This document shows positions 8,568 to 44,458 of a stretch of 64,000 nucleotides of DNA, piece after piece. The translations under genes were made by a program, and so were the position numbers. Each line of letters starts with the position of its first letter. The first letter of the stretch is position 1. Below the pieces are notes generated by a model, which worked only from the letters and a program-made list of their open reading frames with translations, searched no databases and was not told the origin of the DNA. Source of the DNA: an uncultured Acetobacteraceae bacterium (GTDB lineage Bacteria; Pseudomonadota; Alphaproteobacteria; Acetobacterales; Acetobacteraceae); assembly GCA_964242325.1 (NCBI GenBank), contig CAXTCI010000003.1, positions 216-64,215 of the forward strand, written 5' to 3'.

Positions 8568-8595
8568 CGGCTTCGACCAGGCGAGGACATCGGCA

Positions 8596-26571: not shown

Positions 26572-26966
26572 GCGGCCCGGGGAAGGTCAGCGCGGCGCTG
26601 CTTGCTGCCATCGTGCGCAGCGCCAGCCCAAGGCTGATGCAGCGGGACATCATCGCGGGCGGCCGGTCGCCGGCGCGGGCAAGGTTTGCTGCCGGCATAA
26701 CAGCGATGTGTTGAACCGCCGGAACCGCTGGTTCGCCATCAAGCCTCCTCCCGGCCAATCGCCTCGATCGGCCCGGCAAACAGCATTTCCCGCTGCATCC
26801 AGGCTGTCCAACTCCACCCGATACCGCCGGCGGCAGGTCTCATGACCCACTGCGCCCATCCCATTGGGCGTCGGCACGCCCAGCGCCGCCGGTGATCAAC
26901 TCCTGTCGTCAACACCTGGACGGATGCACAACGCCCGGCTTTGATGCCGCCCCGACGCAGTACGGG

Positions 26967-28286
26967 ATGGTGGCCTTGGACGACTGGACAGCAGCGAAAG
27001 TCCTAGACCTCGCCCCGGATGCCGCAAGCCGCAAGGCCGGGCAGGGCCTTGGCCGGGCGCCCGCCTGGCTGCGGACGGGCCGGGACGGCCGCCTGGCCTG
27101 GGGCGAGATCAAGGGCAGCGGCGCCGCCCCATACATCACGGTACTTTCGTTGGATGGGCCAGTTTTCAAGTGTTCGTGCCCCAGCCACAAGTTCCCCTGC
27201 AAGCATGGCTTGGGATTGCTCCTCGTGCTGACCGCGGGCGCCATTCCCGCCGCGGAGCCGCCGGACTGGGTGGCGCAATGGCACGCCAAGCGCACGGCCG
27301 CCGCCGCCACTCGGCCTGCCGCCGACAAGCCGGTGGACGCCAAGGCGCAGGAGCGCCGCCGGCAGCAGCGCGAGGCCAAGGTGGACGCGGGCGTCGGCGA
27401 GCTGGAGTTGTGGATGCGCGACCTGGTCCGCCGCGGCCTGGCCAGCGCGCGGAGCGAGCCATATGCCTTCTGGGACCGCATGGGCGCCCGACTGGTGGAC
27501 GCGCAGGCTCCCGGCCTGGCCCGGCGGGTCCGCGACCTGCCCGGCCTGCTCGCCCGCGGCGGAGAGGACGCTGCGGTGCTGGCCCTGGGCCGGCTGACCC
27601 TGCTGCTGCAAGGCTGGCGGCGGCAGGACGCTCTGCCCGACGCGCTGCGGGCGGAGTTGCGGTCAGCGGTCGGCTTCCCGGTCACCGCGGAGGACCTCGC
27701 GGCGCTGCCGGGGGTTGCAGACGTGTGGACGGTGATGGCGCAGGTCACCGAGGCTGCGGAAGCGTTGCAGGTCCGCTCGACCTGGCTTGCCGGAACCAGC
27801 GGACGGATTGCCCTGCTGCTGGACTTTGCCGCTGGCGAGCGGCCCCTGCCGGCGGCGTCCCGCCCGGGCCAGGCGTTCCGGGGGGAGGTGGTGTTCCACC
27901 CGGGCGCGTCCGGGCTGCGCGGCGTGATCCGGACACAGGCGCCTGCGGTGGCACAGCCTTTGCTGGGCGTGGGCATCACCGCGGCGCTTGACGGGGTCGG
28001 AGAGGCGCTGTCCCGGGTGCCTTGGCTAGAGGAATGGCCGATGACCCTGCGCGGAGTGCGGTTCGCCCGGGTCGGGGGCAAGTGGGCGGTTGCAGATGAC
28101 GGGATGCTGCTTCCGGTTGCCGATGCCCCGTCCATGGTCCCATTCGTCGCCATAGCCGGCGGCATGGCGGCGGACATATTCGGCCTTTGGGATGGGCAGG
28201 CGCTGCGCCTGCTGGCGCTCGGGCAGGCGGGCCGGCTGCATCATCCCGTCATGGCCGATCCCACCCTGGTGCGGCAGGTGGCATGA
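26967..28286 (+). CDS. SWIM zinc-finger protein (YehQ-like), gene 1 of the 5-gene operon
   Basis: SWIM CxCxnCxH motif in FKCSCPSHKFPCKHGLGLLL. The N-terminus MVALDDWTAAKVLDLAPDAASRKAG resembles homologues I recall. An alternative GTG start at 26892 is possible. Confidence 0.8.
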   Translation: MVALDDWTAAKVLDLAPDAASRKAGQGLGRAPAWLRTGRDGRLAWGEIKGSGAAPYITVLSLDGPVFKCSCPSHKFPCKHGLGLLLVLTAGAIPAAEPPDWVAQWHAKRTAAAATRPAADKPVDAKAQERRRQQREAKVDAGVGELELWMRDLVRRGLASARSEPYAFWDRMGARLVDAQAPGLARRVRDLPGLLARGGEDAAVLALGRLTLLLQGWRRQDALPDALRAELRSAVGFPVTAEDLAALPGVADVWTVMAQVTEAAEALQVRSTWLAGTSGRIALLLDFAAGERPLPAASRPGQAFRGEVVFHPGASGLRGVIRTQAPAVAQPLLGVGITAALDGVGEALSRVPWLEEWPMTLRGVRFARVGGKWAVADDGMLLPVADAPSMVPFVAIAGGMAADIFGLWDGQALRLLALGQAGRLHHPVMADPTLVRQVA

Positions 28287-29797
28287 GTGGCTCCGCTGCA
28301 GCAGCGCAGGCCTGGGGCGACACGCTCGCGGCCTGCGCGTTAGGCGTAGAGCGGGCCGGGGTTCCCTCCCTACCCGGCGAGCTGAACGGCCTGGCCGCCT
28401 CCAATGGTCCAGAAGGGTTGTTGCTGGCCGCCGCAGCGCTCGGGCCCTGGCGCATGGCTGGCCGGGTGCCCGACCCTGGCGGCGCCGTCCTGGTTGAGCC
28501 GATGCAGGAAACCCTGCCGGAATGCAGCGACGCCGCAGCATCCCGGTTGGAGATGGTCCTGTCCGGGCGGGGGCCGCAGAAGCAGGTCTGCCGGGAGTGG
28601 TGCCGCCTAGCTGCCGCGGCCGGCGTACGCGTCCCTGCCGGGTTGGCGGCGCGCCTGTATGCCCACACCAAGGGCCTCGACTGGGCCGGGGAGGCCGGCA
28701 CGGTGCTGGCCGGCCGGCTGCCATGGCTGCGCGGGCTGGACGGTGTAGTCATCCCGGAGCCATCCGCGTCCAATTGGTCCGGCCCGGATCTGCCGGGTCG
28801 CGTTGCCGCCCTCCGTTTGATGCGCGCCGACCCTGGCGGGGCCCGTGCGGCGCTTGCTGCCGTCTGGGCATCGGAGCCGGCGGACGCCCGCACCCGCTTG
28901 CTGGCGGCACTTGGCACCGGGCTATGCGCGGAGGATGAGCCGTTCCTGGAGGAGCGCCTGGACGACCGCTCCGTCCAGGTTCGGGCGGAAGCATTGCGCC
29001 TGCTGTCGGACCTGCCCGGCAGCCGCTGGTGCCTGCGGATGCAAACGAGGGCGCGTGCTGCCGTGCAGTTCCGGCCTGGCGGCCTCCTGTCCCGCGACGC
29101 CATGACGGTCGTGCTGCCAGAGCCGGACGACACGGCCCGGCACGACGGGCTGGACGCCAAGGGCGCGGCCGGGCCAGGCGGGGTGCTGCTCGGGCAGCTT
29201 GCCGCCGCGGCTCCGCTGGCGTCATGGGCTGGCCCGGGGGACGGTCCGGCGCCAGAGCGGTGGATCAAGCTGGCCCTCGCCGGGGACTGGGCGGAGACCC
29301 TGGTCCAGGGCTGGTCGGCTGCGGCGGCGCGTGAGCGCGACCCGGCCTGGCTGGCGGCGCTGCTCAGCGCCCTGACGGCCGTCCCAAAGCCGAAACCCTG
29401 GATTGCCCAGGCCTTGCAGACCATCGCGCCGGCAATGCCCACCAAGGACCTGGAACAGGCTGTCTTGACCGCTCTCCACGACAGCCCGCAGCAGCTTGGC
29501 AGCTTGTTGCCAGCCTGCATCCATGCCTGGTCGCCGGCGTTTACCCGGGCGGCCCTGGACTGGCTTGCCGCCAAGCCGGCCGTCAGCGACGCCAGCGCCG
29601 TCGTGTCCCAGCACTACGCCATGAAGTCCGTCCTGGATCTGCTGGCCGTTCACGGCGACCCGGAGCTGGCTGGCCTGCTGTCGGCGCTGCAGGCCGCGCT
29701 GCCTGAAAAGGCCGTTCCCATGCTCCGCCGCGCCTTCGACGACGCGGCCGCAACCCTCACGTTCCGCCGCGCCATGCACCAGGAGTTCGCCCGATGA
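28283..29797 (+). CDS. Uncharacterised helical-repeat protein (DUF5691-like), gene 2
   Basis: Its ATG overlaps the SWIM gene stop (ATGA at 28283-28286). 504 aa, Ala/Leu-rich helical, with a HEAT-like unit DDRSVQVRAEALRLLSDLPGS. The family name is from memory. Confidence 0.7.
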   Translation: MSGSAAAAQAWGDTLAACALGVERAGVPSLPGELNGLAASNGPEGLLLAAAALGPWRMAGRVPDPGGAVLVEPMQETLPECSDAAASRLEMVLSGRGPQKQVCREWCRLAAAAGVRVPAGLAARLYAHTKGLDWAGEAGTVLAGRLPWLRGLDGVVIPEPSASNWSGPDLPGRVAALRLMRADPGGARAALAAVWASEPADARTRLLAALGTGLCAEDEPFLEERLDDRSVQVRAEALRLLSDLPGSRWCLRMQTRARAAVQFRPGGLLSRDAMTVVLPEPDDTARHDGLDAKGAAGPGGVLLGQLAAAAPLASWAGPGDGPAPERWIKLALAGDWAETLVQGWSAAAARERDPAWLAALLSALTAVPKPKPWIAQALQTIAPAMPTKDLEQAVLTALHDSPQQLGSLLPACIHAWSPAFTRAALDWLAAKPAVSDASAVVSQHYAMKSVLDLLAVHGDPELAGLLSALQAALPEKAVPMLRRAFDDAAATLTFRRAMHQEFAR

Positions 29798-30882
29798 CCA
29801 CCACCGCCACCGCCCTGCGCCGAGCCGCCGAGGACGAGTTCGCCGGGGAGCTGGAGGCGCTCGCCAAGTCCGACACCCGGCCGCGCCCGCCCAACTGGCG
29901 CCTGTCGCCCGGCGCCGTCTGCACCTACCTGCTGGGCGGCACGCTGCCGGACGGCTTCAAGGTGTCGGCCAAGTATATCGGCGACCGGCGGATCATTGAG
30001 GTCGCGGTGGCGACGCTTGCCACCGACCGCGCCCTGTTGCTGCTCGGCGTGCCCGGCACCGCCAAGAGCTGGGTCAGCGAGCACCTAGCCGCCGCCATCT
30101 GCGGCACCTCCCGCCTGATCGTCCAGGGCACCGCCGGCACGTCGGAGGAGAGCATCCGCTACGGCTGGAACTACGCCCTGCTGCTGGCCAAGGGGCCGAG
30201 CCGCGAGGCCGTGGTGCCCAGCCCCGTCATGCGCGCCATGCAGGAGGGCGTGATCGCCCGGGTGGAGGAGCTGACCCGCATCCCCTCGGAAACCCAGGAC
30301 AGTTTTATCACCGTCCTGTCCGAGAAGGTGCTGCCGATCCCGGAGCTTGGCGAGGAAGTGTCCGCCGCCCGCGGCTTCAACCTGATCGCGACCGCCAACA
30401 ACCGGGACCGCGGAGTGAACGACCTGTCCAGCGCCCTCAAGCGCCGCTTCAACACCGTCATCCTGCCGCCGCCGGCGACGGCCGAAGAAGAGGTCCGGAT
30501 CGTCGAAACCCGCGTCGCCAGCATCGGCCGTAGCTTCAGCATCCCCGGCGAGCCGCCGGGCGCCGACCAGATCCGCCGCGTGGTCGCGGTATTCCGCGAG
30601 CTGCGGGAGGGCGTCACGGAGGACGGCAAGGCCAAGGTCAAGCAGTCCTCCGGCTCCATGTCCACCGCCGAGGCGATCTCGGTCGTCGTTCAGGGCCTGG
30701 CGCTGGCGGCGCATTTCGGCGACGGCACCCTGCAGATGCGCGACCTGGCAGCGGGTCTGCAAGGCGCGGTGGTGAAGGACCCGGTGCAAGACGCCATCGT
30801 ATGGCGCGAATACCTGGAAACCGTGGTGAAGGAGCGCCCGGCCTGGCAGGACCTGTATCGCGCCGCCCGGGAAACGGCGTAG
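29794..30882 (+). CDS. MoxR-class AAA+ ATPase (YehL-like), gene 3
   Basis: ATGA overlap with gene 2. Walker A GVPGTAKS, Walker-B-position IARVEEL, sensor-1 LIATAN, Arg motif SALKRRF. Confidence 0.9.
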   Translation: MTTTATALRRAAEDEFAGELEALAKSDTRPRPPNWRLSPGAVCTYLLGGTLPDGFKVSAKYIGDRRIIEVAVATLATDRALLLLGVPGTAKSWVSEHLAAAICGTSRLIVQGTAGTSEESIRYGWNYALLLAKGPSREAVVPSPVMRAMQEGVIARVEELTRIPSETQDSFITVLSEKVLPIPELGEEVSAARGFNLIATANNRDRGVNDLSSALKRRFNTVILPPPATAEEEVRIVETRVASIGRSFSIPGEPPGADQIRRVVAVFRELREGVTEDGKAKVKQSSGSMSTAEAISVVVQGLALAAHFGDGTLQMRDLAAGLQGAVVKDPVQDAIVWREYLETVVKERPAWQDLYRAARETA

Positions 30883-30888
30883 GCGCCC

Positions 30889-33420
30889 ATGGCCGTCCAC
30901 CTGTTCGGCATCCGCCATCACGGCCCCGGTTCCGCCCGGTCCCTGCTGGCGGCACTGGAGGCATTGACGCCGGACTGCGTGCTGATCGAGGGCCCGCCGG
31001 ATGCCGACGCGCTGATCCCGCTCGCGGCGGATGACGACATGGCGCCGCCGGTGGCGCTGCTGGTGTATCAGGCGGACGAGCCGCGGCGGGCGTCGTTCTA
31101 CCCGCTGGCCGCGTTCTCGCCGGAGTGGGTGGCGATGCGGCATGCCCTGGCGGCGGGCGTGCCGGTGCGCTTCATGGACCTGCCGCAGACGATCCAGCTC
31201 GCTCCGGAAACGCCGGAGTCAGCCGCGGATGCGCTAGCCAGGGTGCTGCCGGCCTCCGCAGAGCCGCCGACCGCCGCGCTGGCTGGGGGCATGCCCGTCG
31301 CGTCGCCCGGGGGAGCGCCGTCCGGGGCCACGCCCGCCGCAGACGACCAGCCGTCCGCCGCGCGGCCCGTGGAGGACTCACCTGCCGCCCTTCCGCCTTC
31401 GGATGCCTCGCCTGGCGCTACGCCACCTGCGGATGACCCGCCTGCCGCCGCGCCGCAAAATGGGACCGCGGGTGAGGATGCTCCCTCGGCGGAGCCTGCG
31501 CCTGCCGAGCCCTACCTGCGCCAAGACCCCTTGGGCGAGCTGGCCCGGGTCGCCGGGTTCACCGATGGCGAACGGTGGTGGGACGAGCTGGTGGAAAGCC
31601 GCGCCAGCCGGGGCGACGACGTGTTCCATGCCGTCGCGGAGGCGATGACCGCACTGCGCGAGGCGATACCGGACGCCGGCCCCGAGGCGGGACCTCATGC
31701 CGCCAGGGAGTTCAAGCGCGAAGCCCGCCGCGAGGCCCACATGCGGACCACCATCCGCGCCGCAGCCAAAGAGGGCCACACCCGCATCGCTGTCGTCTGC
31801 GGCGCCTGGCACGTGCCTGCCCTCCTGCTGCACGACGCCCGCGGCCAGGCCAAGCTGGACGCCGCAACCCTCAAGGGCCTGCCGCGTGTCAAGACGGCGG
31901 TAACCTGGGCACCCTGGTCGTATGAACGTCTGGCTGCCAGCAGCGGCTACCGCGCCGGGGTGCTGTCCCCCGAATGGTATCACCTGGTCTGGCACAGCGG
32001 CGACCCAGGTGAAGGCGGAAGCATCGCCGCCCAATGGCTGACCCGCACCGCCCGGCTGCTGCGCGACGAGGACCTGGACGCATCGCCTGCCTCGGTGATC
32101 GAGGCCGTGCGCCTGGCCGACATGCTGGCCGGGATGCGCGGGCGCTCCCGCCCGGGGCTGGACGACTTGCAGGAAGCCTGCCTCGGCACGCTGCTGTTCG
32201 CCAATCCCGCGCCGATGGCGCTGATCCACCGCAAGCTCATCATCGGCGAGCGTCTGGGCACAGTACCGGAGGGCGCACCGCAAACTCCGGTGCAGGCGGA
32301 CCTGGCCGCGCAGACCCGGCGCCTGCGCCTGCCCCTGCAAGCCGGCTCCCGCCCGCTTGAACTGGACCTGCGCAACGAGAACGACCTGGCCCGGAGCCGC
32401 CTGCTGCACCGCTTGCTGCTGCTGGACGTGCCCTGGGGCACCCGGCAGCGCAGCCGCGGCGGGCGCGGCACCTTCCGCGAGGAATGGGTGCTGAACTGGC
32501 AGCCGGACCATGCCGTCGCCGTGGTCGCGGCGTCCCGCATGGGCGCCACGGTCGAGGACGCGGCGGCGGCGCAGGTCGCGCAGCGCGCCGCGGCGGGCGG
32601 CAGCGTCGCGGCCCTATCCGCGCTGGTCGGCACGGTGCTGGACGCGCATTTGCCCGCGGCGGCCGACTCGGTGCTGCGCGCCCTGGCGGACGGGGCGGCG
32701 CTGGCGACGGACGTGTTCGACCTGATGGACGCATTGCCGCCGTTGGCGGAACTGGCGCGCTACGGCTCGGTCCGCCAGGGTGGGGCAGGCACCGCCGGGG
32801 CCGGAACGGTACTGGGGATCGTGGGCGGCATCCTGACGCGGCTCGCCGCCGGACTGGTAGCGGGCTGCCTGTCCCTGGACGACGAGGCAGCAGCCAAGGC
32901 GCAGGCCCGCCTAGGCGCAGTGCAGCAGGCGGTGGCGCTGCTGGAGCAGCCGGAACTGCAGCAAGAATGGACCGCGGCACTGGCCCGGCTGGCAGACCAG
33001 GACACGGTGAATGGCCGCGTCGTCGGGCGCGCCACCCGGCTGTTGCTGGACCTGCATCACTTCACTGCGGAGCAGGCCGGCCGGCGCCTTGGCCTCGCCT
33101 TGTCCCATGCCGCCGCGCCCGCCGAGGCCGCGGCGTGGATCGAGGGCTTCCTGGCCGGTAGCGGCGCCGTGCTGCTGCACGACGCGGCGTTGCTGCCCAT
33201 CTTGGACGAGTGGCTGACCGGGCTGACCGAGGAGCGGTTCGTGGAAGTCCTGCCCTTGGTCCGCCGCACCTTGGCCACCTTCGCCGCGCCGGAGCGCCGC
33301 ATGATCGGCGAGCGCCTGCGAAGCGGCTCGGCCCGAGTTGCCGAACCGGACGGCTTCGACGAGGCGCGCGCCGCCCGCGTCCTGCCGGTGCTGCGCTTGT
33401 TGCTGGGGACGCCGGCATGA
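30889..33420 (+). CDS. Large uncharacterised protein (DUF5682/YehM-like) with a TraB/TIKI-like N-terminal region, gene 4
   Basis: Starts 6 nt after the gene 3 stop. 843 aa. N-terminus VHLFGIRHHGPGSARSL..PDCVLIEGPPD, and later REAHMRTTI..RIAVVCGAWHVPALL. Contains an internal Pro/Ala-rich insert. Confidence 0.75.
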   Translation: MAVHLFGIRHHGPGSARSLLAALEALTPDCVLIEGPPDADALIPLAADDDMAPPVALLVYQADEPRRASFYPLAAFSPEWVAMRHALAAGVPVRFMDLPQTIQLAPETPESAADALARVLPASAEPPTAALAGGMPVASPGGAPSGATPAADDQPSAARPVEDSPAALPPSDASPGATPPADDPPAAAPQNGTAGEDAPSAEPAPAEPYLRQDPLGELARVAGFTDGERWWDELVESRASRGDDVFHAVAEAMTALREAIPDAGPEAGPHAAREFKREARREAHMRTTIRAAAKEGHTRIAVVCGAWHVPALLLHDARGQAKLDAATLKGLPRVKTAVTWAPWSYERLAASSGYRAGVLSPEWYHLVWHSGDPGEGGSIAAQWLTRTARLLRDEDLDASPASVIEAVRLADMLAGMRGRSRPGLDDLQEACLGTLLFANPAPMALIHRKLIIGERLGTVPEGAPQTPVQADLAAQTRRLRLPLQAGSRPLELDLRNENDLARSRLLHRLLLLDVPWGTRQRSRGGRGTFREEWVLNWQPDHAVAVVAASRMGATVEDAAAAQVAQRAAAGGSVAALSALVGTVLDAHLPAAADSVLRALADGAALATDVFDLMDALPPLAELARYGSVRQGGAGTAGAGTVLGIVGGILTRLAAGLVAGCLSLDDEAAAKAQARLGAVQQAVALLEQPELQQEWTAALARLADQDTVNGRVVGRATRLLLDLHHFTAEQAGRRLGLALSHAAAPAEAAAWIEGFLAGSGAVLLHDAALLPILDEWLTGLTEERFVEVLPLVRRTLATFAAPERRMIGERLRSGSARVAEPDGFDEARAARVLPVLRLLLGTPA

Positions 33421-33473
33421 CCAGGGATGCCGGATTGACCAGGGACGCCCGCATACCAGGAACGCCGACATGA
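33417..33473 (+). other. 18-codon bridging mini-ORF (MTRDAGLTRDARIPGTPT) between genes 4 and 5
   Basis: Its ATG (33417-33419) overlaps the TGA of gene 4 (33418-33420). Its TGA (33471-33473) overlaps the ATG of gene 5 (33470-33472). It is built from three roughly 18-bp tandem units, TGACCAGGGAYGCC-N4. Confidence 0.4.
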
Positions 33474-34612
33474 ACGAGGACGAACGGCTCCGCCGGTGGC
33501 GCCTTGCGCTGGGCGCCGGCGCGGCGGACGGGACGGGCTTTGCGCTGAAGGGCACAGACCTCGGCATAGACCGGGCGCTCGACGCGCTTTACGACAGCAA
33601 GCGCTCGGCCGGCCTAGGCCCCTCGGCGCCGTCCGTGCCGCGGTGGCTCGGCGACATACGCAGCTATTTCCCAAGCTCCGTCGTGCAGGTCCTACAGCGG
33701 GACGCCTTCGAGCGGTTGGACCTCCATCAACTCCTGCTGCAGCCGGAGATGATGGAGGCGGTGCAGCCCGACATCCACCTGGTGTCGCAACTGATCGCCA
33801 TGCGCGGGCTGCTGGGCGGCACGGTGAAGGAAACGGCGCGCCTGGTGGTGCGGCGCGTGGTGGAAGATCTGCTCCGCAAGTTGGAGGCTCCACTGCGTCA
33901 GGCGGTCGGCGGCGCCCTGAGACGAGGAGTCCGCAACCGCCGCCCGCGCCACAGCGAGATCGATTGGAACCGGACCATCCGCGCCAACCTGCGCCACTAC
34001 CAGAGGGACCTAGGCACCATCATCCCCGAAACCCGCATCGGCCACGGGCGGGCGGCCCGGCCGAACCTGCGGGATGTCGTGCTGTGCATCGACCAAAGCG
34101 GCAGCATGGCGAACTCGGTGGTTTACAGCAGCATCTGCGGCGCGGTGCTGGCGTCGCTGCCGGCGGTGCGAACGCGGCTGGTGGTGTTCGACACGTCCGT
34201 GGTGGACCTGACGGACCAGTTGACGGACCCGGTAGACGTGCTGTTCAGCGTGCAACTGGGTGGAGGCACCGACATCAACCGGGCCATCGGCTACTGCGAG
34301 GGCCTAATCGAGCGTCCGGACGACACGATCCTGGTGTTGGTCAGCGACTTGTATGAGGGTGGGGTGGCCGCCGGGCTGCTGGCACGGGCGCACCGGCTGG
34401 TGTCCGCAGGGGTGCAGTTCATCACGCTCCTAGCCCTGAGCGACGAGGGCGCGCCGTCATACGACCGGCACCTTGCCGGGCAGTTGGCGGCGTTGGGCGT
34501 GCCGAGCTTCGCGTGCACGCCCGACCTGTTCCCGGACATGATGGCGGCGGCGATCCGCAAGGAGGACGTGGGTCAATGGGCGTCCACGGCTGGGATCGCG
34601 CGGGCAGGGTAG
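33470..34612 (+). CDS. von Willebrand factor A (VWA, CoxE/YehP-like) protein, gene 5
   Basis: MIDAS DQSGSM..GGGTD..VSDLYEGG. The N-terminus MNEDERLRRWRLALG is typical of MoxR-partner VWA proteins. Confidence 0.85.
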   Translation: MNEDERLRRWRLALGAGAADGTGFALKGTDLGIDRALDALYDSKRSAGLGPSAPSVPRWLGDIRSYFPSSVVQVLQRDAFERLDLHQLLLQPEMMEAVQPDIHLVSQLIAMRGLLGGTVKETARLVVRRVVEDLLRKLEAPLRQAVGGALRRGVRNRRPRHSEIDWNRTIRANLRHYQRDLGTIIPETRIGHGRAARPNLRDVVLCIDQSGSMANSVVYSSICGAVLASLPAVRTRLVVFDTSVVDLTDQLTDPVDVLFSVQLGGGTDINRAIGYCEGLIERPDDTILVLVSDLYEGGVAAGLLARAHRLVSAGVQFITLLALSDEGAPSYDRHLAGQLAALGVPSFACTPDLFPDMMAAAIRKEDVGQWASTAGIARAG

Positions 34613-35741: not shown

Positions 35742-35826
35742 TGCTTTCACCTCCTGCCGCTGTTGGACAGGTCGGCCCACCGAGCGCCTAGTGCCGACTC
35801 GTAACGATGAAGCAGGGGAGCGCAGC

Positions 35827-37074
35827 ATGGCCGGAACGAGGCAGTTGAGCAGCACCGTCAACCGGCGCGGGCTGCTGCGGGGTCTGGGCGCCCTGGGCAC
35901 CGCCGCCCTGGCGGTCCCGGCCTGGGCGCAGGGCACGGTGCATCTCGGCCTGAACGGCGGCCCGGACGAGCGGGCGCTGACCGCGGCCTTTCCGCAGAAA
36001 GCCTCGATGATCCTGCAGCGGACCCGGCCGCCGCTGCTGGAAACGCCGTTCGAGGTGTTCGACCCGGTGTCCAACGGGGGCGTCTTCACCCCCAACGACC
36101 GTTTCTTCGTGCGCTGGCACTGGGCCGTGATCCCCGAGCAGGTGGACCTGGCCAGCTTCCGCGTGGCGGTCCGCGGCCACGTGAACCAGGCGCAGTCGCT
36201 GACGATGGCCGACATCCTGGCGCTGCCCCGCGTCGAGCTGGCTGCCGTCAACCAGTGCTCCGGCAACTCCCGCGGGCTGTTCCAGCCGCGCATCGCCGGC
36301 GGCCAGTGGCAGAATGGCGCGATGGGCAATGCGAAGTGGACCGGCGTCCGGCTGCGCGACGTGCTGGACCGCGCCGGCGTGAAGCCCGGCGCCGTCGCGG
36401 TCCGCTTCAACGGCCTCGACCAGCCGGTGGTGGACGGCGCGCCGGACTTCATGAAGTCGCTCGCATTGGACCATGCCAGGGACGGCGAGGTCATGCTGGC
36501 CTACCAGATGAACGGCGAGCAGTTGCCGCTGCTGAACGGCTTCCCGCTGCGCCTGGTCGTGCCCGGCTGGTATTCGACCTACTGGGTCAAGATGGTGAGC
36601 GACATCGAGGTCCTGGACGCGCCGGACAACAGCTTCTGGATGAAGAGCGCCTACCTGATCCCCGCCACGCCGCATGCCGACGTGAAGCCCGGGCAGACCG
36701 GCTTCCCGACCGAGCCGATCAACCGGATGGTGCCGCGCTCCTTCTTCACCAATGTGACCCCGGCCAGCACGGTCAAGGCCGGTGCGCCGGTGCCGCTGCG
36801 CGGGATCGCGTTCGGGGGGGATTGCGGGGTGGCGGCGGTGGACACCTCCGTGGACGGTGGCCAAACCTGGCAGCCGGCGGCGCTGGGCCGCAACGAGGGC
36901 GCCTACAGCTTCCGGCAATGGACGGCGCAGGTGAACGCCCCCGCATCCGGCACGCTGACGGCGATGGTCCGCTGCACCAACACGCGGCGGGTGCCGCAGC
37001 CGATGGAGGCCAACTGGAACGGCGGCGGCTTCATGCGGAACGTCATCGAGACCGTCCACCTGGCCGTCGCCTGA
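35827..37074 (+). CDS. sorA: Sulfite dehydrogenase molybdopterin subunit (sulfite-oxidase family), Tat signal
   Basis: RRGLLRGLGALGTAALAVPAWA twin-arginine leader. Mo-ligand Cys context NQCSGNSRG. Also NGFPLRLVVPGWY. Confidence 0.85.
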   Translation: MAGTRQLSSTVNRRGLLRGLGALGTAALAVPAWAQGTVHLGLNGGPDERALTAAFPQKASMILQRTRPPLLETPFEVFDPVSNGGVFTPNDRFFVRWHWAVIPEQVDLASFRVAVRGHVNQAQSLTMADILALPRVELAAVNQCSGNSRGLFQPRIAGGQWQNGAMGNAKWTGVRLRDVLDRAGVKPGAVAVRFNGLDQPVVDGAPDFMKSLALDHARDGEVMLAYQMNGEQLPLLNGFPLRLVVPGWYSTYWVKMVSDIEVLDAPDNSFWMKSAYLIPATPHADVKPGQTGFPTEPINRMVPRSFFTNVTPASTVKAGAPVPLRGIAFGGDCGVAAVDTSVDGGQTWQPAALGRNEGAYSFRQWTAQVNAPASGTLTAMVRCTNTRRVPQPMEANWNGGGFMRNVIETVHLAVA

Positions 37075-37095
37075 ACCGGACCGAGGAGCACCGCC

Positions 37096-37575
37096 ATGGC
37101 CATCACCCTGAACACCGTCGCCTACGGTACCGTCGTCGTTGGCGGATTGGTCCTGTTTGCCATCGGCACTCCGGTGGAGCGGTCAGCCGCCCTGCAGGCG
37201 CGCCTGGCCGCCGACACGCCGGTCACGCCGGCCTACTCGGTGGCAGTCAACAAGCAGGTCGCCGCCTATGCCGCAGCCGTCGGTCCACGGGCGGCTCCGG
37301 CCGTGGCGGAGGCAGGCGGGATCAAGCTCCGCTCGGTCGGGTTCGACCTGCCCGCCAGCAGCCGGGCCTTCCCGGACGGACCCGGCGCCGAGCTGGTCAC
37401 GAATAACTGCCAGTCCTGCCACTCGCCGGGCATGATCCTGAACCAGCCGGCGCTGACCCGGGCCGAGTGGACGGGCGAGGTCAACAAGATGCTCCACACC
37501 TACAAGGCGCCGTTGGCCGAGGAGGACGTGGGCGCGATCGTCACCTACCTGGCCAGCCTGAAGGTGGCGCCGTAG
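37096..37575 (+). CDS. sorB: Cytochrome c subunit of sulfite dehydrogenase
   Basis: Haem motif CQSCH. GAGGAG lies before the ATG. Starts 21 nt after sorA. Confidence 0.8.
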   Translation: MAITLNTVAYGTVVVGGLVLFAIGTPVERSAALQARLAADTPVTPAYSVAVNKQVAAYAAAVGPRAAPAVAEAGGIKLRSVGFDLPASSRAFPDGPGAELVTNNCQSCHSPGMILNQPALTRAEWTGEVNKMLHTYKAPLAEEDVGAIVTYLASLKVAP

Positions 37576-37596
37576 CCCTGACGGCACGTTGATGCA

Positions 37597-37648
37597 CTGG
37601 ATCGGTTTGCTTCCAGGCTGGATGTAAACCGATCCAGTCTTTTGTTTG
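37597..37648 (+). terminator. Rho-independent terminator after sorB
   Basis: 12-bp perfect stem CTGGATCGGTTT / AAACCGATCCAG with a 17-nt loop, followed by TCTTTTGTTTG. Confidence 0.6.
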
Positions 37649-37697
37649 CGAACAGGAACTTGCAGGTTCAGATGCGGTCGCTGCGCGTCCAGGCCTG

Positions 37698-37790
37698 ATA
37701 CCAACGGCCTTCCGTTTCGACCGTTCTTGCTGGCACGTTCCAAGGTTCTGTGTGAGCGCAGATACGGTCAAAGCAGAGGGCCGTTGGTAT
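37698..37790. repeat. 93-bp long imperfect inverted repeat (33-nt arms, 27-nt loop)
   Basis: Outer 12 bp are perfect (ATACCAACGGCC / GGCCGTTGGTAT). The inner 21 nt pair at 14/21 positions. Lies in the convergent sorB/yeiH-like intergenic region. Confidence 0.5.
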
Positions 37791-37853
37791 GACCGCAGTC
37801 TGCTCTATTCCCGGCCCTGGTCCAGCGTTGAGACCAGGGACACAGGGTCGGTG

Positions 37854-38972
37854 TCACGCGATGCCCAGCAGACGGATCAGCCCCACGCTGATCGCGCCCA
37901 GCGCCAGCAGGCTGAGCGTGACCGCGGCGATCACCCGCACCCCGGCCCGGGCCACCACCCGCAGGTCGGTGCCGAGACCGAGCGCGGCCATTGACACCAC
38001 CGTCAGCAGGTTGGCCGCCGCCGCCATGGGGCCGAGCGCCACGTGCGGCACCACATCCGCCGACCGCAACCCGGCCAGCACCAGGAAGCCGACGATGAAC
38101 CACGGCACCAGCTTATGCAGCGGCAGCTTGCCCGGCGCCGGGCGGTCGCCCGCGGTGACGTGCGGCGCGGCCTCGTCCGCCTCGTCGCGCAGGCGCCGGG
38201 TCAGCAGCGACAGGCCGAGCACGACGGGGCCGAGCATCAGCACCCGAACCAGCTTGACCAGCGTCCCCATATGGACCGCGACCGTGCCGATGGGCGCCGT
38301 CGCGGCCAGCACCTGCGGCACCGCATAGACCGTCAGCCCCGCCAGCACACCGTATTGCAGGTGGGTCAGGTGCATCAGCGCCGGCAGCAGCGGCAGGCCA
38401 AGCACCACCAGCACGCCCAGCACCGCCGTGAAAGCGATGGAGGCGGCCACGTCCTCGCCGTCGGCGCCGATGATGGGCGCCACCGCCGCGATGGCCGAGT
38501 TGCCGCAGATGGAGTTGCCGCAGGCGACCAGCGTCGCCATCCGGTGCGGCAGCCCGAGCAGCCGGCCGATGCCGTAGCTGCCAACGATGGCGAGCACCAC
38601 GACCGCCGCAATCCCTGCGATCAGCAGCGGCCCAGCCGCCACGATCATCCCGGCGCTGATCGAGGCGCCGAGCAGCAGTACCGCGACTTCCAGCAGCATT
38701 TTGGCGCTGAAATCAATGCCTGCGAACCATCGCCGCCCCGGCGTCCAGGCCGTGCGTACGGCGGTGCCGACCAGGATCGCCAGCACCAGCGCCTCCAGCC
38801 AGGTGGCGCCGAACAACGCTGCCTCCGCATGCTCCAATCCCACCGCGGCGCCCGTCACGGCCAGGCATAGTCCCAGGCCGGGCAGCAGGCGGCCAAGCCT
38901 GCCGACTGCACCCTGGACGGACGGCACCGGGCGGAACAGGGCAGGGGATGGCGCAGCGACAGGAACGGACAT
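37854..38972 (-). CDS. YeiH/UPF0324-family membrane protein (putative sulfate exporter family)
   Basis: 372-aa polytopic protein with the motif LVACGNSICGNSAIAA, typical of the family. Confidence 0.85.
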   Translation of the reverse strand: MSVPVAAPSPALFRPVPSVQGAVGRLGRLLPGLGLCLAVTGAAVGLEHAEAALFGATWLEALVLAILVGTAVRTAWTPGRRWFAGIDFSAKMLLEVAVLLLGASISAGMIVAAGPLLIAGIAAVVVLAIVGSYGIGRLLGLPHRMATLVACGNSICGNSAIAAVAPIIGADGEDVAASIAFTAVLGVLVVLGLPLLPALMHLTHLQYGVLAGLTVYAVPQVLAATAPIGTVAVHMGTLVKLVRVLMLGPVVLGLSLLTRRLRDEADEAAPHVTAGDRPAPGKLPLHKLVPWFIVGFLVLAGLRSADVVPHVALGPMAAAANLLTVVSMAALGLGTDLRVVARAGVRVIAAVTLSLLALGAISVGLIRLLGIA

Positions 38973-39252
38973 GGAAGCCTCGTCTCATGAGGTCCTTCAG
39001 GTGCGCCGTCCCGTTCCGCTAGTCCAACAATAACGTCAGATGCAAATCATCAGTAGGGGCGATGGATGCCCATGTTAGCTGCCGCTGGCAGGCCGGCGGC
39101 ACTGCCGATGGGCGGAGCGAAGCCATTCATGACCGCGGACCAGGCCGGGTATATGCAGCCGCCACCCGCAGACTGGGATTCGGCAACCAATTGTCCAAAT
39201 GCCGACATTAAAGCAGCCGAACTCCTTCAGACCCCGTCAGCCTGCTCCAGCC

Positions 39253-39531
39253 TCACCCTGCGTCGCTCGCTCCCTGGCCGCTAGCTTCCGCAAGGGACGT
39301 CGCCCGGACAACTGGGCTTTCTACCGCAGGCCACGTCCGCATCGCCTCCGCCACGAGCGGGTCGAGACCGTGACCTCCCGCCCTGGCGTGCTCCCGAAAC
39401 GCCGAGCGCATGCCCGGCGTCCAGAACGCCACCAGATGGTCCCTGATGCCGGCATAGGCTTCCTCTTCCGGATAAGGCCGGAAGAAACTTGCAATCTCGT
39501 TGGCCATGCGGGCCATCGTTTCAACCTTCAT
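39253..39531 (-). CDS. fdsD: Formate dehydrogenase delta subunit
   Basis: 92 aa with MANEIASFFRPYPEEEA..FWTPGMR. GGAGG lies before the ATG. Directly follows fdsA. Confidence 0.85.
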   Translation of the reverse strand: MKVETMARMANEIASFFRPYPEEEAYAGIRDHLVAFWTPGMRSAFREHARAGGHGLDPLVAEAMRTWPAVESPVVRATSLAEASGQGASDAG

Positions 39532-39555
39532 GGCGCCCTGCCTCCTTCCGCACCG

Positions 39556-42399: not shown

Positions 42400-42410
42400 G
42401 GCTGTCCTCC

Positions 42411-43961
42411 TTATTCCGCAGCCACTGGCAGGGCGCGGTGGAAATCCTCGGGAAAATGGGTCAGCGCACTGTTGACCGGCACGGGCGTCAGCCCGCCCAT
42501 GGCGCACAGCGAAGCATCGGTCATCAACTCGCACAGGTCATCCAGCAGGGCGAAGTTCTTGGCCGGCTCGATCCCGGCGATGATGCGGTCTACCACCTCG
42601 ACGCCGCGGACGGCGCCGATGCGGCAGGGGGTACATTTGCCGCAGCTTTCCGCGGCGCAGAAGCTGAAGGCAAAGCGGGCCTGCCGGGCCAAATCCACGG
42701 TGTCGTCGAACACCACGACGCCGCCATGCCCAACCAGGCCGCCCGCCTTGGTGAACGCCTCGTAGTCCATCGGCGTGTCCAGCAGCGCCTCGGGGAAGTA
42801 GGCGCCCAGCGGGCCGCCGACCTGCACCGCGCGGAACGGGCGGCCGCTGCGGGTGCCGCCGCCCCAGTCCTCGATCAGGCTGCGGAGCGTCACGCCGAAC
42901 GGCAATTCGATCAAGCCGCCACGCGCCACGTTACCGGCCAACTGCACCGGCAGGGTCCCGAGCGACCGACCCGTGCCGAGCGCGGCGTAAGCCGGACCGC
43001 CGTTAGCCATGATCCAGGGCACGCTGGCCAGCGACATCACGTTGTTGACCACGGTCGGACGCCCGAACAGCCCCTCGATGGCCGGCAGCGGCGGCTTGGC
43101 GCGGACCATGCCGCGCTTGCCCTCCAAGCTGTCCAGCATGGAGGTCTCCTCGCCGCAGATGTAGGCGCCGGCGCCCATCCGCACCTCGATGTCGAACGCC
43201 TGGCCGGACCCCATGATGTCCGCCCCCAGCAGCCCGGCCCGGCGCGCAGCCAGCACCGCCGCGTTCAGGATACGTATGGCATGGGGATACTCGGACCGCG
43301 TGTAGATGTAGCCCTTGGTGGCGCCGACCGCGACGGCGGCGATCGTCATGCCCTCGATCAACGAGAACGGGTCGCCCTCCATCAGCATCCGGTCGGCGAA
43401 GGTGCCGCTGTCGCCCTCGTCGGCGTTGCAGGCGACGTACTTGCGGTCGGCGGGCGCCAGCCGGACCGTGTTCCACTTGATCCCCGTCGGGAACCCGGCG
43501 CCGCCGCGCCCGCGCAGGCCGGACAGCTTCACCTCGTCCACCGTCGCCTCGGCGCCCATCGCCAGCGCGCGTTCCAGCCCGGCATAACCGCCGTGGGCGC
43601 GGTAGTCCTCGACCGACACGGGATCAACCACGCCGCAGCGGGCGAAGGTCAGCCGGGTCTGCCCGGCGAACCAGGGATGCTCCTCCGGCCGGCCGATCCG
43701 CAGCGGGTGCGCGCCACCCTCCAGCAGGCCGGCGTCCAGCAGGCCCGGCACGTCGGCTGCCTGCACGGGGCCGTAGGCAATGCGGCCCTCCGGCGTCTCC
43801 ACCTCCAGCAGCGGCTCCAGCCAGACCGCGCCGCGTGTGCCGGTCCGCACCACATCCAGGTCGCAGCCACGCGCGGCAGCCTCGGCCCGCAAGGCGCGCA
43901 GCACCGCGTCGGCGCCGAGCGCCAAGGCGGCCATGTCCTGCGGCAGGAAGATGCGGGTCAT
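42411..43961 (-). CDS. fdsB: Formate dehydrogenase beta subunit (NuoF-like, FMN/NAD)
   Basis: GAGAYICGEETSMLDSLEG and a C-terminal 4Fe-4S motif (ESCGKCTPCR). ATGA overlap with fdsG. Confidence 0.95.
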   Translation of the reverse strand: MTRIFLPQDMAALALGADAVLRALRAEAAARGCDLDVVRTGTRGAVWLEPLLEVETPEGRIAYGPVQAADVPGLLDAGLLEGGAHPLRIGRPEEHPWFAGQTRLTFARCGVVDPVSVEDYRAHGGYAGLERALAMGAEATVDEVKLSGLRGRGGAGFPTGIKWNTVRLAPADRKYVACNADEGDSGTFADRMLMEGDPFSLIEGMTIAAVAVGATKGYIYTRSEYPHAIRILNAAVLAARRAGLLGADIMGSGQAFDIEVRMGAGAYICGEETSMLDSLEGKRGMVRAKPPLPAIEGLFGRPTVVNNVMSLASVPWIMANGGPAYAALGTGRSLGTLPVQLAGNVARGGLIELPFGVTLRSLIEDWGGGTRSGRPFRAVQVGGPLGAYFPEALLDTPMDYEAFTKAGGLVGHGGVVVFDDTVDLARQARFAFSFCAAESCGKCTPCRIGAVRGVEVVDRIIAGIEPAKNFALLDDLCELMTDASLCAMGGLTPVPVNSALTHFPEDFHRALPVAAE

Positions 43962-44458
43962 AGGCGGCGTGCCTCCGCGGCCATGGTTTCGAGCTTGGCG
44001 TCATCCAGCCGGGCCACCGGCTCGCCATCGAGCAGCGCCGCCGGGCTGCAGGCGCACAGGCCCAGGCAGTAGACCGCCTCGACCGTCAAGCTGCGGTCCG
44101 CCGTGGTGCCGCCCCAGTCAAGGCCAAGCCGCGCCAGCAGCCGGTCCGCCATATCGACGCCACCGTTGGATTGGCACGACTCCGCCCGGCATAGCTTCAG
44201 CACATGGCGACCTGGCGGAGCCCGACGGAAGTCGTGGTAGAAGGAGATCACGCCATGAACCTCGGCGCGCGACAGGTTCAGCGCATCGGCGATCATCGGC
44301 TCGCTCTGCTTCGGCACGCAGCCGAACTCATCCTGCAACGCATGGAGGATGGGCAGGGCAGCGCCTTCCATGCCGGCATGGGCGGCAATGATATCGGCAG
44401 CCAGGGCGGCATCCCAGCGTTCAACGGTTGATGGTATTTGGCCGACCAACGCAGTCAT
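43958..44458 (-). CDS. fdsG: Formate dehydrogenase gamma subunit (NuoE-like 2Fe-2S)
   Basis: CRAESCQS and CLGLCACSP cysteine pattern. 166 aa. Confidence 0.9.
   Translation of the reverse strand: MTALVGQIPSTVERWDAALAADIIAAHAGMEGAALPILHALQDEFGCVPKQSEPMIADALNLSRAEVHGVISFYHDFRRAPPGRHVLKLCRAESCQSNGGVDMADRLLARLGLDWGGTTADRSLTVEAVYCLGLCACSPAALLDGEPVARLDDAKLETMAAEARRL

Follow-up and report, generated by a model that had tools for sequence, protein, structure and literature searches.

A five-gene MoxR-VWA cassette orthologous to Deinococcus ddrTUVWX, a candidate AAA+/MIDAS machine of the DNA-damage response

Introduction

What does a compact operon do that joins a MoxR-class AAA+ ATPase and a VWA protein to a SWIM zinc-finger protein and two large proteins of uncharacterized families? 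Such an operon lies within the window, the 64,000-nt stretch of DNA analyzed here. The initial annotation regarded it as an autonomous and undescribed system, related it to the E. coli yehLMPQ genes, and raised the possibility that it belongs to the NTP-dependent conflict systems.

Results

The five-gene cassette is real. Five plus-strand ORFs carry the motifs first described for them where they had been placed, and profile searches against Pfam confirm all five domain calls (SWIM, DUF5691, AAA_5/MoxR, DUF5682 and VWA_CoxE). The features are as follows, with coordinates here and throughout being positions in the window.

26572..26966, + strand: upstream intergenic region, 395 nt, presumed promoter region
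26967..28286, + strand: gene 1, DdrT-like SWIM protein, 439 aa (Pfam SWIM)
28283..29797, + strand: gene 2, DdrU-like DUF5691 helical protein, 504 aa (Pfam DUF5691)
29794..30882, + strand: gene 3, DdrV-like MoxR-class AAA+ ATPase of the YehL subfamily, 362 aa (AAA_5)
30889..33420, + strand: gene 4, DdrW-like DUF5682 protein, 843 aa (Pfam DUF5682)
33417..33473, + strand: bridging mini-ORF, 18 codons, MTRDAGLTRDARIPGTPT, with an ATGA overlap at both ends
33470..34612, + strand: gene 5, DdrX-like VWA_CoxE protein, 380 aa (VWA_CoxE)

The proposed translational chaining can be read directly from the sequence. Genes 1 and 2 are joined by an ATGA at 28283-28286 and genes 2 and 3 by another at 29794-29797, genes 3 and 4 are separated by a 6-nt gap at 30883-30888 (TAG, gcgccc, ATG), and the ATGA-bounded mini-ORF connects genes 4 and 5. 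No conserved counterpart of this mini-ORF was found among the other cassette loci. The flanks are likewise as first annotated: a creatininase gene precedes the cassette, and genes for a LysR protein, a SorA-like molybdoenzyme and a cytochrome c follow it. The intergenic region ahead of gene 1 contains the element GTTGAACCGCCGGAACCGCTGGTTC at 26712-26736, and searches of 26572..26966 found neither a sigma-70-like site nor an Rfam match; no riboswitch and no metal-regulator site were detected.

Of 80 loci retrieved, about 50 have this five-gene order, and they span 12 or more phyla, a recurrence far beyond chance. No neighboring gene is conserved with it: the 132 flanking ORFs from 36 loci match 160 Pfam families, each in at most three loci, which bears out the view of the cassette as an autonomous unit with no client beside it. 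Nor are the flanks enriched for defence genes, matches among these ORFs being sporadic. The cassette is maintained across whole genera (Methylobacterium, Streptomyces, Chitinophaga) and occupies unrelated or different genomic sites in close relatives. It occurs in 15 of 72,556 plasmid records, none of the 15 being mobilizable. None of its proteins matches any of 5027 PADLOC models, and classical repair domains, nuclease and helicase domains included, are absent from all five. Some copies have an Mrr, Uma2 or PIN toxin gene as a neighbor, and in the Chitinophagaceae a DUF4132 gene directly follows the cassette.

The system thought to be undescribed had already been named. The Deinococcus operon ddrTUVWX (Deide_18730-Deide_18690) received its name in 2017 as a part of the IrrE/DdrO regulon that responds to radiation (Blanchard et al. 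2017, PMC5552922). In D. deserti it ranks with the transcription units that radiation induces most strongly, its induction is IrrE/DdrO-dependent and it has an RDRM upstream (PMC5552922). The D. taeanensis locus, with the order SWIM-DUF5691-AAA-78aa-DUF5682-VWA, exactly matches the ddrTUVWX layout described in PMC9510100 and has an RDRM-like site 36 nt upstream of ddrT. Gene content and gene order in the window are those of ddrTUVWX (SWIM, DUF5691, AAA_5 MoxR, DUF5682, VWA_CoxE), the D. taeanensis operon differing in an additional 78-aa ORF between ddrV and ddrW, and the window proteins are 39-66% identical to their D. taeanensis orthologues (39% for gene 1 and DdrT, 66% for gene 3 and DdrV, 51% for gene 5 and DdrX). 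Checked through this copy, the orthology of the window cassette to ddrTUVWX is confirmed. The initial annotation remains correct that no biochemical function is assigned to it, and no deletion phenotype of ddrTUVWX or yehLMPQ was found in the searchable literature. In D. radiodurans, WGR and DUF4132 genes are also DdrO-regulated.

Regulatory evidence from three phyla points to a DNA-damage response, with induction established experimentally in Deinococcus and the actinobacterial and cyanobacterial evidence being motif-based. The published PafBC motif, tGTCgg(N10)tA(N3)T (PMC8635444), is found exactly once per locus in 14 of 16 actinobacterial loci, among which those of Streptomyces are mutually related and so are not independent observations; the 1.34 Mb of the other loci contain it a single time. 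In these actinobacterial loci the motif immediately precedes the SWIM gene, or in L045 the MoxR gene, and in Streptomyces a second, -26-like element lies ahead of a divergent MoxR gene. The consensus AGTACWNWTGTACT has been published for cyanobacterial LexA (PMC3091678). Allowing at most one mismatch, it has six matches in 1.6 Mb, four of them located 40-140 nt upstream of gene 1 in loci that are cyanobacterial or Chloroflexota. In some cyanobacteria DNA repair is not under LexA control. Unlike ddrTUVWX, with its RDRM operator and its IrrE/DdrO-controlled radiation induction, the cassette in the window has no RDRM or other recognized damage operator, and a canonical LexA, RDRM or PafBC motif is missing upstream both here and in the close relative L087, so that damage induction of the window copy is something we infer.

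The ATPase and the VWA protein evolve more slowly than the SWIM and DUF5691 proteins. Gene 3 matches AAA_5 (Pfam, E 2e-38) and has its Walker A motif, GVPGTAKS, at 30046-30069. This motif, the hEE Walker B, the ATAN sensor-1 and the RRF arginine finger are near-invariant across 73 loci, and identity across phyla is 65-82%. The closest PDB relatives by sequence are the midasin AAA modules and NorQ. Gene 5 matches VWA_CoxE (Pfam, E 7e-52) and its MIDAS is intact (DQSGS at 34091-34105, then GGGTD and SDLYEG), with the MIDAS residues kept in at least 66 of 68 loci.

Gene 1 scores 20.5 bits against Pfam SWIM, narrowly over the 19.6 cut-off, and its CxCx8CxH finger, CSCPSHKFPCKH, lies at 27171-27206; the motif is kept in 64 of 64 loci. 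In the AF2 model (pLDDT 93) the finger is followed by long helices and then by two C-terminal beta-barrels. Foldseek gives weak matches of this model to the tandem OB folds of POT1, LEF-3 and Teb1 (E 0.007-0.05) and also to ZSWIM8, weakly suggesting that the two barrels are OB-like. Gene 2 matches DUF5691 (E 5e-84), and its product contains a HEAT-like unit, seen in the alignment as DEPFLE..DRS..VR..A..LL..LP. Two lineages that are not related to each other (loci L033 and L045) have the SWIM and DUF5691 genes as a single fused gene.

Gene 4 matches DUF5682 (Pfam, E 2e-247). Its N-terminal alpha/beta domain holds GIRHHGPGSA (30907-30936) and VVCGAWHVPAL (31792-31824). The protein also has a disordered Pro/Ala insert at 31201-31518, an alpha/beta domain in its middle part and helical repeats at its C terminus. 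The AF2 model has a pLDDT of 82.5 and a pTM of 0.79, and Foldseek returns only weak ARM/HEAT-like matches to it. The His/Glu motifs are near-invariant across loci, and the conserved elements of the N-terminal domain follow the same order as in the TraB/GumN/Tiki (EreA/ChaN-like) superfamily: G-x-x-H behind a strand, an acidic residue behind the strand that comes next, R-(N/E)-x-x-(W/M), and again G-x-x-H behind a strand. Pfam TraB has no match in the protein. Aligned with hhalign, the DUF5682 and TraB/GumN profiles score 26.2 vs 13.95 +/- 1.97 for 40 column shuffles (z ~6), at an hhalign probability of only 5%. Unlike the TraB/GumN/Tiki hydrolases, DUF5682 has the long disordered insert and ~470 further residues. 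The N-terminal domain is probably a TraB/GumN/Tiki-like hydrolase domain, although the assignment is weak.

Discussion

We favor, with moderate confidence, the view that this ddrTUVWX orthologue is a self-contained, co-translated AAA+/MIDAS machine of the DNA-damage response, and its best reading is as a remodeling or processing complex. DdrT, with its SWIM finger and two OB-like barrels, and DdrU, the HEAT-like DUF5691 protein, would form a recognition or adaptor module that locates a substrate linked to damage, either on DNA or close to it. The MIDAS site of DdrX would couple this substrate to the hexameric MoxR ATPase DdrV, and ATP hydrolysis would then remodel or extract it on the large DdrW (DUF5682) scaffold, where the TraB/GumN/Tiki-like His/Glu site of the N-terminal domain may subsequently hydrolyze it.

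It is unlikely, in our assessment, that the cassette is a classical MoxR-VWA maturation chaperone, which would insert or repair a metal center or cofactor in a client encoded elsewhere and use DUF5682 as a large substrate-holding subunit. The VWA protein is indeed of the CoxE type, the closest relatives of the ATPase with a solved structure include NorQ, the window has molybdoenzyme genes downstream of the cassette, and the invariant His/Glu motifs of DUF5682 could bind metal. By analogy, the combination also resembles CobS-CobT-CobN, a trio of AAA_5, VWA and large subunits. Maturation is moreover the mode of every characterized MoxR-VWA pair (PMC3893208, PMC7159879), but a client or cofactor gene is conserved beside the cassette in 0 of 36 diverse loci, close relatives have the cassette at unrelated sites, riboswitch and metal-regulator sites were not detected, and nothing in known maturation systems corresponds to the SWIM/OB-like and HEAT-like proteins. 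Such a role is also hard to square with control by three unrelated DNA-damage regulators. General stress proteostasis, in which a disaggregase or unfoldase would act on proteins damaged by oxidation or radiation with no specific link to DNA, appears very unlikely. Chaperone-like MoxR ATPases have been described (PMC3893208), radiation and desiccation harm proteins as well as DNA, and none of the five proteins has a canonical DNA-repair domain; however, the PafBC and LexA triggers are ssDNA and DNA damage rather than protein damage, the finger and OB-like barrels suggest recognition of nucleic acid or of a specific partner, and an association with WGR/DUF4132 genes is seen repeatedly, in E. coli, Chitinophagaceae and Deinococcus.

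Predicted ternary conflict systems have a vWA-MoxR pair as their engine (Kaur, Burroughs, Iyer, Aravind 2020, PMC7159879), and the cassette shares with these its core, its faster-evolving extra components (here SWIM and DUF5691) and a distribution mainly in large-genome, often multicellular bacteria. An anti-phage or anti-plasmid system, with SWIM/DUF5691 as invader sensor and DUF5682 as effector, could also account for the faint bpMoxR match, the Mrr, Uma2 or PIN toxin beside some copies and the different sites in close relatives, and DNA-damage induction could suit a response to prophage induction. We nevertheless judge it improbable. The bpMoxR score of 24.5 is under the 27-bit cut-off, a third component of the VMAP, iSTAND or beta-propeller kind is missing, the vWA protein carries no fused effector, and the similarity of the ATPase across phyla is unlike that of arms-race components. 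Maintenance across whole genera and rarity on plasmids also count against it, and with no PADLOC match, no defence enrichment and no effector domain the idea of a new immune system gains no support. Since the cassette corresponds to the radiation-switched ddrTUVWX of Deinococcus, it is most likely a damage-response machine rather than such a system.

Among known systems, yehLMPQ is likewise one operon with the MoxR, DUF5682 and VWA_CoxE core trio and a SWIM protein. Its equation with the cassette, less the DUF5691 gene that E. coli lacks, holds for the trio, the MoxR protein belonging to the YehL subfamily (YehL is 41% identical to gene 3, YehP 37% to gene 5 and YehM 27-35% to gene 4), but is otherwise loose: YehQ carries two SWIM fingers and has only the finger in common with gene 1, similarity being otherwise undetectable, and in the order L-M-P-Q the SWIM gene stands last rather than first. 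The WGR/DUF4132 genes yehF, molR and yehI lie upstream, with molR/yehF adjoining yehLMPQ behind a LexA box. On these comparisons yehLMPQ is no more than a distant variant of the cassette. Among PDB sequences the gene 3 ATPase is matched best by the AAA_5 modules of Rea1/midasin (E 1e-7), which offer an analogy rather than an orthologue: this single giant eukaryotic polypeptide pairs AAA_5 with a MIDAS domain and acts on pre-60S ribosomes, pulling a protein off a nucleoprotein particle. The pairs CoxD-CoxE, NorQ-NorD, CbbQ-CbbO and RavA-ViaA likewise set a MoxR/AAA_5 ATPase gene beside a MIDAS-bearing VWA gene, and the chelatases CobS-CobT-CobN and BchI-BchD-BchH add a large third subunit. For these characterized systems the client enzyme or cofactor is known, and they lie next to it or serve it as dedicated partners, whereas the cassette has no linked client, and its SWIM, DUF5691 and DUF5682 partners and its DNA-damage circuits set it apart from both groups.

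Gene content and relationship to ddrTUVWX

The cassette comprises five genes on the + strand, and Pfam assigns SWIM, DUF5691, AAA_5, DUF5682 and VWA_CoxE to genes 1 to 5, in agreement with the five domain types given in the initial annotation.

Genes of the cassette (window coordinates)
26967-28286, +, gene 1, Pfam SWIM (20.5 bits, cut-off 19.6)
28283-29797, +, gene 2, Pfam DUF5691 (E 5e-84)
29794-30882, +, gene 3, Pfam AAA_5 (E 2e-38)
30889-33420, +, gene 4, Pfam DUF5682 (E 2e-247)
33470-34612, +, gene 5, Pfam VWA_CoxE (E 7e-52)

The close coupling described earlier is present in the sequence. ATGA overlaps occur at 28283-28286 and 29794-29797, the six nucleotides gcgccc separate the TAG of gene 3 from the ATG of gene 4, and an 18-codon mini-ORF (33417-33473) has its ATG on the gene 4 stop and its TGA on the gene 5 start. 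This mini-ORF encodes MTRDAGLTRDARIPGTPT and so links the DUF5682 stop to the VWA start by ATGA at both ends. It is not conserved, the DUF5682-VWA junction elsewhere being a gap of 14-300 nt or a direct ATGA overlap, and so may simply relay translational coupling in this genome. The flanks are functionally unrelated, as had been stated, with metabolism genes on both sides: upstream are genes for a peptide-binding protein, an amidohydrolase, an M20 peptidase and a creatininase, and downstream are LysR and a group of genes at window 35791-44000 that code for a cytochrome c and a SorA-like molybdoenzyme, for a membrane protein resembling YeiH, and for subunits like NuoF and formate dehydrogenase alpha. 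In other loci nothing ties this group to the cassette. The window has a GC content of ~70%, and the nearest named relatives of the source organism are Methylobacterium and Pararoseomonas.

The cassette had been put forward as an undescribed system, a view that has to be given up, for it is already named as Deinococcus ddrTUVWX (PMC5552922). In D. deserti this operon ranks with the transcription units that radiation induces most strongly, and its induction is IrrE/DdrO-dependent, with the DdrO operator motif RDRM upstream (PMC5552922); its function is stated to be unknown (PMC5552922; review PMC6300522). In D. taeanensis TS293 ddrTUVWX has been reported with an extra 78-aa ORF between ddrV and ddrW (PMC9510100). 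The 430-kb plasmid of D. taeanensis carries, in order, SWIM, DUF5691, AAA ATPase, the 78-aa ORF (8360-8596 of the fetched locus L086, between the MoxR and DUF5682 genes), DUF5682 and VWA, and the window has the same five co-directional gene types in the same order. Full-length BLASTP identities between the window and D. taeanensis proteins are 39% for T, 66% for V, 39% for W and 51% for X, while the U proteins share only a 66-residue local match (41%, BLASTP) and both match Pfam DUF5691. D. taeanensis has an RDRM-like palindrome, TTACGCCAGAAACATAA, 36 nt upstream of ddrT and downstream of a TTGACA-17-TACAAT promoter; unlike ddrTUVWX, the window cassette is accompanied by no RDRM-like 17-mer anywhere in the 64 kb. 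Outside Deinococcus, to which the RDRM is confined, no such motif would be expected. The literature searched includes no functional study of yehL/M/P/Q, DUF5682, DUF5691, DUF4132 or ddrT-X, and no mention of DUF5682, DUF5691 or yehLMPQ.

Conservation of the cassette

The DUF5682 family is very large, with at least 8000 clusters matched (90% identity clustering). A one-genome-per-species scan for DUF5682 loci yielded at least 589 confirmed loci, of which we fetched 80, including representatives of Chloroflexota, Cyanobacteria, Deinococcota, Alpha-, Beta- and Gammaproteobacteria, Desulfovibrionaceae, Planctomycetota, Bacteroidota, Actinomycetota, Myxococcota, Armatimonadota, Acidobacteriota and Clostridia. 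Searching these with the five window proteins (tblastn) revealed the same gene order and strand in ~50 of the 80 loci, and the five-gene order recurs across phyla; contig ends account for most of the incomplete loci. Other arrangements include a SWIM-DUF5691 pair divergent from the remaining three genes in Streptomyces and a DUF5682 gene that stands alone in some Nostocales. In several other loci the MoxR-DUF5682 junction holds 1-6 kb of unrelated genes, a miscellany of esterase, cyclase, cellulase, Mrr, Uma2 and SUKH immunity protein genes.

Identity to the window proteins across phyla is 65-82% for the MoxR ATPase, 55-76% for VWA, 37-62% for DUF5682, 30-49% for SWIM and 25-36% for DUF5691. 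Walker A, the hEE Walker B, sensor-1, the Arg finger and the MIDAS residues hardly vary, and the same holds for the SWIM ligands and the His/Glu motifs of DUF5682. The SWIM and DUF5691 proteins are encoded by a single ORF in a planctomycete (L033 5634-8618, 994 aa) and in Actinoplanes (L045 6025-8865, 946 aa). These independent fusions point to a physical SWIM-DUF5691 partnership, from which we argue that the two proteins act together.

Anatomy of the cassette proteins

Gene 3 encodes a single AAA_5 module whose GVPGTAKS, ARVEELTR, ATAN and ALKRRF motifs are kept in 73 loci. Pairwise sequence comparison assigns it to the YehL subfamily of MoxR AAA+ ATPases, its closest characterised-genome relative being E. 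coli YehL (41% identity over 351 residues), and a VWA gene accompanies gene 3 in its operon. YehL is one of seven MoxR subfamilies and is listed without function (PMC3893208). The correspondence with E. coli yehLMPQ suggested in the initial annotation is loose: the E. coli group is only a distant variant, and the SWIM finger alone is common to YehQ and the window SWIM protein. A comparison of DUF5691 with E. coli YehI (DUF4132) showed no similarity. Among solved structures, gene 3 comes closest in sequence to the AAA modules of midasin and to NorQ; PDB sequence searches returned no solved relative of the SWIM, DUF5691, DUF5682 or VWA proteins. The MIDAS of gene 5 is intact, as previously noted, with DQSGS, GGGTD and SDLYEG all present, and the site is kept in at least 66 of 68 loci.

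The finger of gene 1, CSCPSHKFPCKH, has the CxCxnCxH ligand pattern. The model of this protein (pLDDT 93) comprises a SWIM unit (strands 34-69, then a helix at 79-89), a stretch of ~140 residues folded as long helices, and a pair of beta-barrels. Its best Foldseek matches, all weak (E 0.007-0.45), are the tandem OB-fold DNA binders POT1, LEF-3, Teb1, HIN and RPA, together with ZSWIM8 (probability 0.82); for the OB-fold matches of the C-terminal half the E-values are 0.007-0.3 and the TM-scores only 0.14-0.39. The DUF5691 protein is helical, with one clear HEAT-like unit.

The DUF5682 model (pLDDT 82.5, pTM 0.79) is built from an N-terminal alpha/beta domain (residues 1-375), a middle alpha/beta domain and a C-terminal helical repeat, and the whole chain gives only weak ARM/HEAT-like (helical-repeat) Foldseek matches. 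The N-terminal domain is interrupted by a 106-residue disordered insert rich in Pro, Ala and Ser (window 31201-31518, pLDDT <50), a position at which homologues have variable, mostly shorter linkers. Along this domain lie, in order, a strand with GIRHHG, LIEGPPD, FSPEW...DLP, REAxMR, and a strand with VVCGAWH; by inspection, TraB/GumN proteins present a collinear succession of LIGSIH, VEAD, GID...LE, RNxxW and VVVGALH. An hhalign comparison with a TraB/GumN profile of 77 diverse representatives aligned precisely these last two elements (E 0.0075, probability 5%) and gave a second collinear match in the FSPEW region. The score was 26.2, against 13.95 +/- 1.97 (maximum 18.4) for 40 column-shuffled controls. 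The Pfam TraB model did not match the N-terminal domain with the insert removed. Given the collinear motifs, the score above the shuffles and the lack of a Pfam TraB match, we regard this domain as a putative Tiki/TraB-like hydrolase, an assignment that is probable but unproven.

DNA-damage motifs upstream of cassette homologues

PafBC, an actinobacterial DNA-damage activator, recognises tGTCgg(N10)tA(N3)T (PMC8635444). Of the 16 actinobacterial loci (307 kb), drawn from Streptomyces, Nocardiopsis, Sphaerisporangium, Actinoallomurus, Actinoplanes and Catellatospora, 14 have exactly one match each to the search pattern TGTC[AG]G-N10-TA-N3-T, as against a single match in the 1.34 Mb of non-actinobacterial loci. 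Every match has the orientation of the SWIM gene and immediately precedes it; in Actinoplanes, with its fusion of genes 1 and 2, the match precedes the MoxR gene instead. Streptomyces has a second TGTCAGTG element ahead of the divergent MoxR gene, so that in L060, L061, L065, L071, L073, L078, L079 and L040 each of the two divergent units is preceded by a TGTCAGTG PafBC-type -26 element; the -10 on the MoxR side is CAnnnT, not TAnnnT. A published list of PafBC-dependent M. smegmatis proteins with the P1 (RecA-independent) promoter motif includes MSMEG_5511 ('von Willebrand factor, type A'), a possible member of such a cassette (PMC5656591, supplementary Table S1).

The cyanobacterial LexA consensus, AGTACWNWTGTACT (PMC3091678), is matched with at most one mismatch six times in 1.6 Mb, and four of these matches are 40-140 nt upstream of gene 1 in loci from Cyanobacteria and Chloroflexota (L002, L037, L062 and L070). 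In E. coli the genes yehF-molR-yehI (WGR/DUF4132) precede yehLMPQ, and a LexA-type box, CTGGATAAAATTACAG, stands 25 nt before yehF; a D. radiodurans study cites molR as a LexA-regulon member. The WGR and DUF4132 genes of D. radiodurans are DdrO-controlled and mitomycin-induced. A DUF4132 (MolR/YehI-like) gene of ~980 aa also lies directly 3' of the VWA gene in Chitinophaga and Niastella. The cassette is recurrently associated, in Chitinophaga, Niastella and E. coli, with another DNA-damage-induced family (association loci L021 13453-16407, L042 13414-16338, L051 13528-16455; L081 10280-13912).

Upstream of the window cassette and of its close relative L087 there is no canonical LexA (alpha, gamma/beta, Gram-positive or cyanobacterial), RDRM or PafBC pattern. 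Rfam detects no riboswitch in the window upstream region or in six loci. Neither a promoter/terminator scan of the window, at 70% GC, nor a comparison of the upstream region with those of three close relatives by phylogenetic footprinting was informative. The segment GTTGAACCGCCGGAACCGCTGGTTC at window 26712-26736, 245 nt upstream of gene 1, includes the palindrome GAAC-N5-GTTC, of which the 64 kb have only one further copy. It fits no LexA spacing known to us and may be the site of a regulator.

Genomic setting and alternative roles

When all ORFs of the loci were clustered against each other, conservation outside the cassette was limited to lineage-specific synteny. In a sample of 36 diverse loci, the nearest flanking ORFs (132 in all) match 160 Pfam families, none of them in more than three loci, and in three further annotated genomes the neighbours are unremarkable genes of regulation or metabolism. 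Close relatives of the window cassette (75-90% identity) occupy different genomic sites: in L088 and L089 the cassette follows rpmI-rplT and precedes a DUF433-PIN toxin-antitoxin pair, and in L087 a second AAA_5 plus DUF2201_N pair is directly upstream. Mrr-type and Uma2-type endonuclease genes recur beside or inside the cassette in unrelated lineages (L087 32-2886 and 10867-12413; L064 4283-5161; L003 9316-9897).

It had been proposed that the vWA-MoxR core might serve as the engine of an NTP-dependent conflict system, with enrichment near defence or mobile islands as a point to check. This reading fails every test applied. None of the five proteins matches any defence-system model in PADLOC-DB v2, an NCBIfam scan of them gave nothing specific, and PADLOC matches among the 132 flanking ORFs are sporadic only. 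Plasmid carriage of the family is confined to 15 of 72,556 records, all 15 being non-mobilizable megaplasmids or chromids. In contrast to the vWA-MoxR ternary conflict systems, the window MoxR reaches only 24.5 bits with bpMoxR (PF20030), below the 27-bit cut-off and over 48 residues, there is no VMAP, iSTAND or propeller component, and gene 5, whose Pfam matches are VWA_CoxE/VWA_2 only, has no effector domain. Classical maturation of a client enzyme by the cassette is possible, but no client is linked to it. With neither a linked client gene nor a defence-island setting, the cassette is autonomous, as the initial annotation had judged.

Interpretation and comparison with known systems

The best-supported reading is that the cassette encodes an ATP-driven MoxR/MIDAS remodelling complex belonging to the DNA-damage response. 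We have direct evidence for the domain identities, the conservation of the operon, its orthology with ddrTUVWX and the operator motifs, and radiation induction is an experimental result from the literature, established in Deinococcus only. The window copy is an ordinary family member in which nothing points to damage control. As to the division of labour among the five proteins, we infer that the SWIM/OB-like and HEAT-like proteins would form a recognition module, with MoxR as the motor, the VWA-MIDAS protein as a coupler, and DUF5682 as a scaffold and possible hydrolase; all of these mechanistic steps are inferential.

The window cassette is now tied to a named radiation-response operon, and three unrelated damage circuits (DdrO/IrrE, PafBC and LexA, the latter two from motifs) stand upstream of orthologues in three phyla. 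Together these links turn an operon of 'function unknown' into a concrete, testable hypothesis, and make the YehL branch of the MoxR ATPases, which has been without a function since its definition, directly testable. The locus is a member of a described family without a known mechanism; the cross-phylum tie to DNA-damage circuits and the domain-level anatomy appear to be new.

A bolder and, in our estimation, unlikely proposal is that cassettes of the DdrTUVWX/YehLMPQ type are a widespread damage-induced machine clearing protein obstacles (perhaps DNA-protein crosslinks or nucleoprotein complexes that have become trapped) from damaged DNA. The SWIM/OB-like protein and its HEAT-like partner would find the lesion, the MIDAS protein would grip the adduct, the MoxR hexamer would unfold or extract it, and the Tiki/TraB-like site of DUF5682 would cleave it. 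The ways in which bacteria deal with DNA-protein crosslinks and with trapped complexes are, to our knowledge, little understood, and a machine acting on DNA-bound proteins would fill that gap. Such an obstacle-clearing machine would be a functional analogue, made of unrelated parts, of eukaryotic p97-SPRTN/Wss1.
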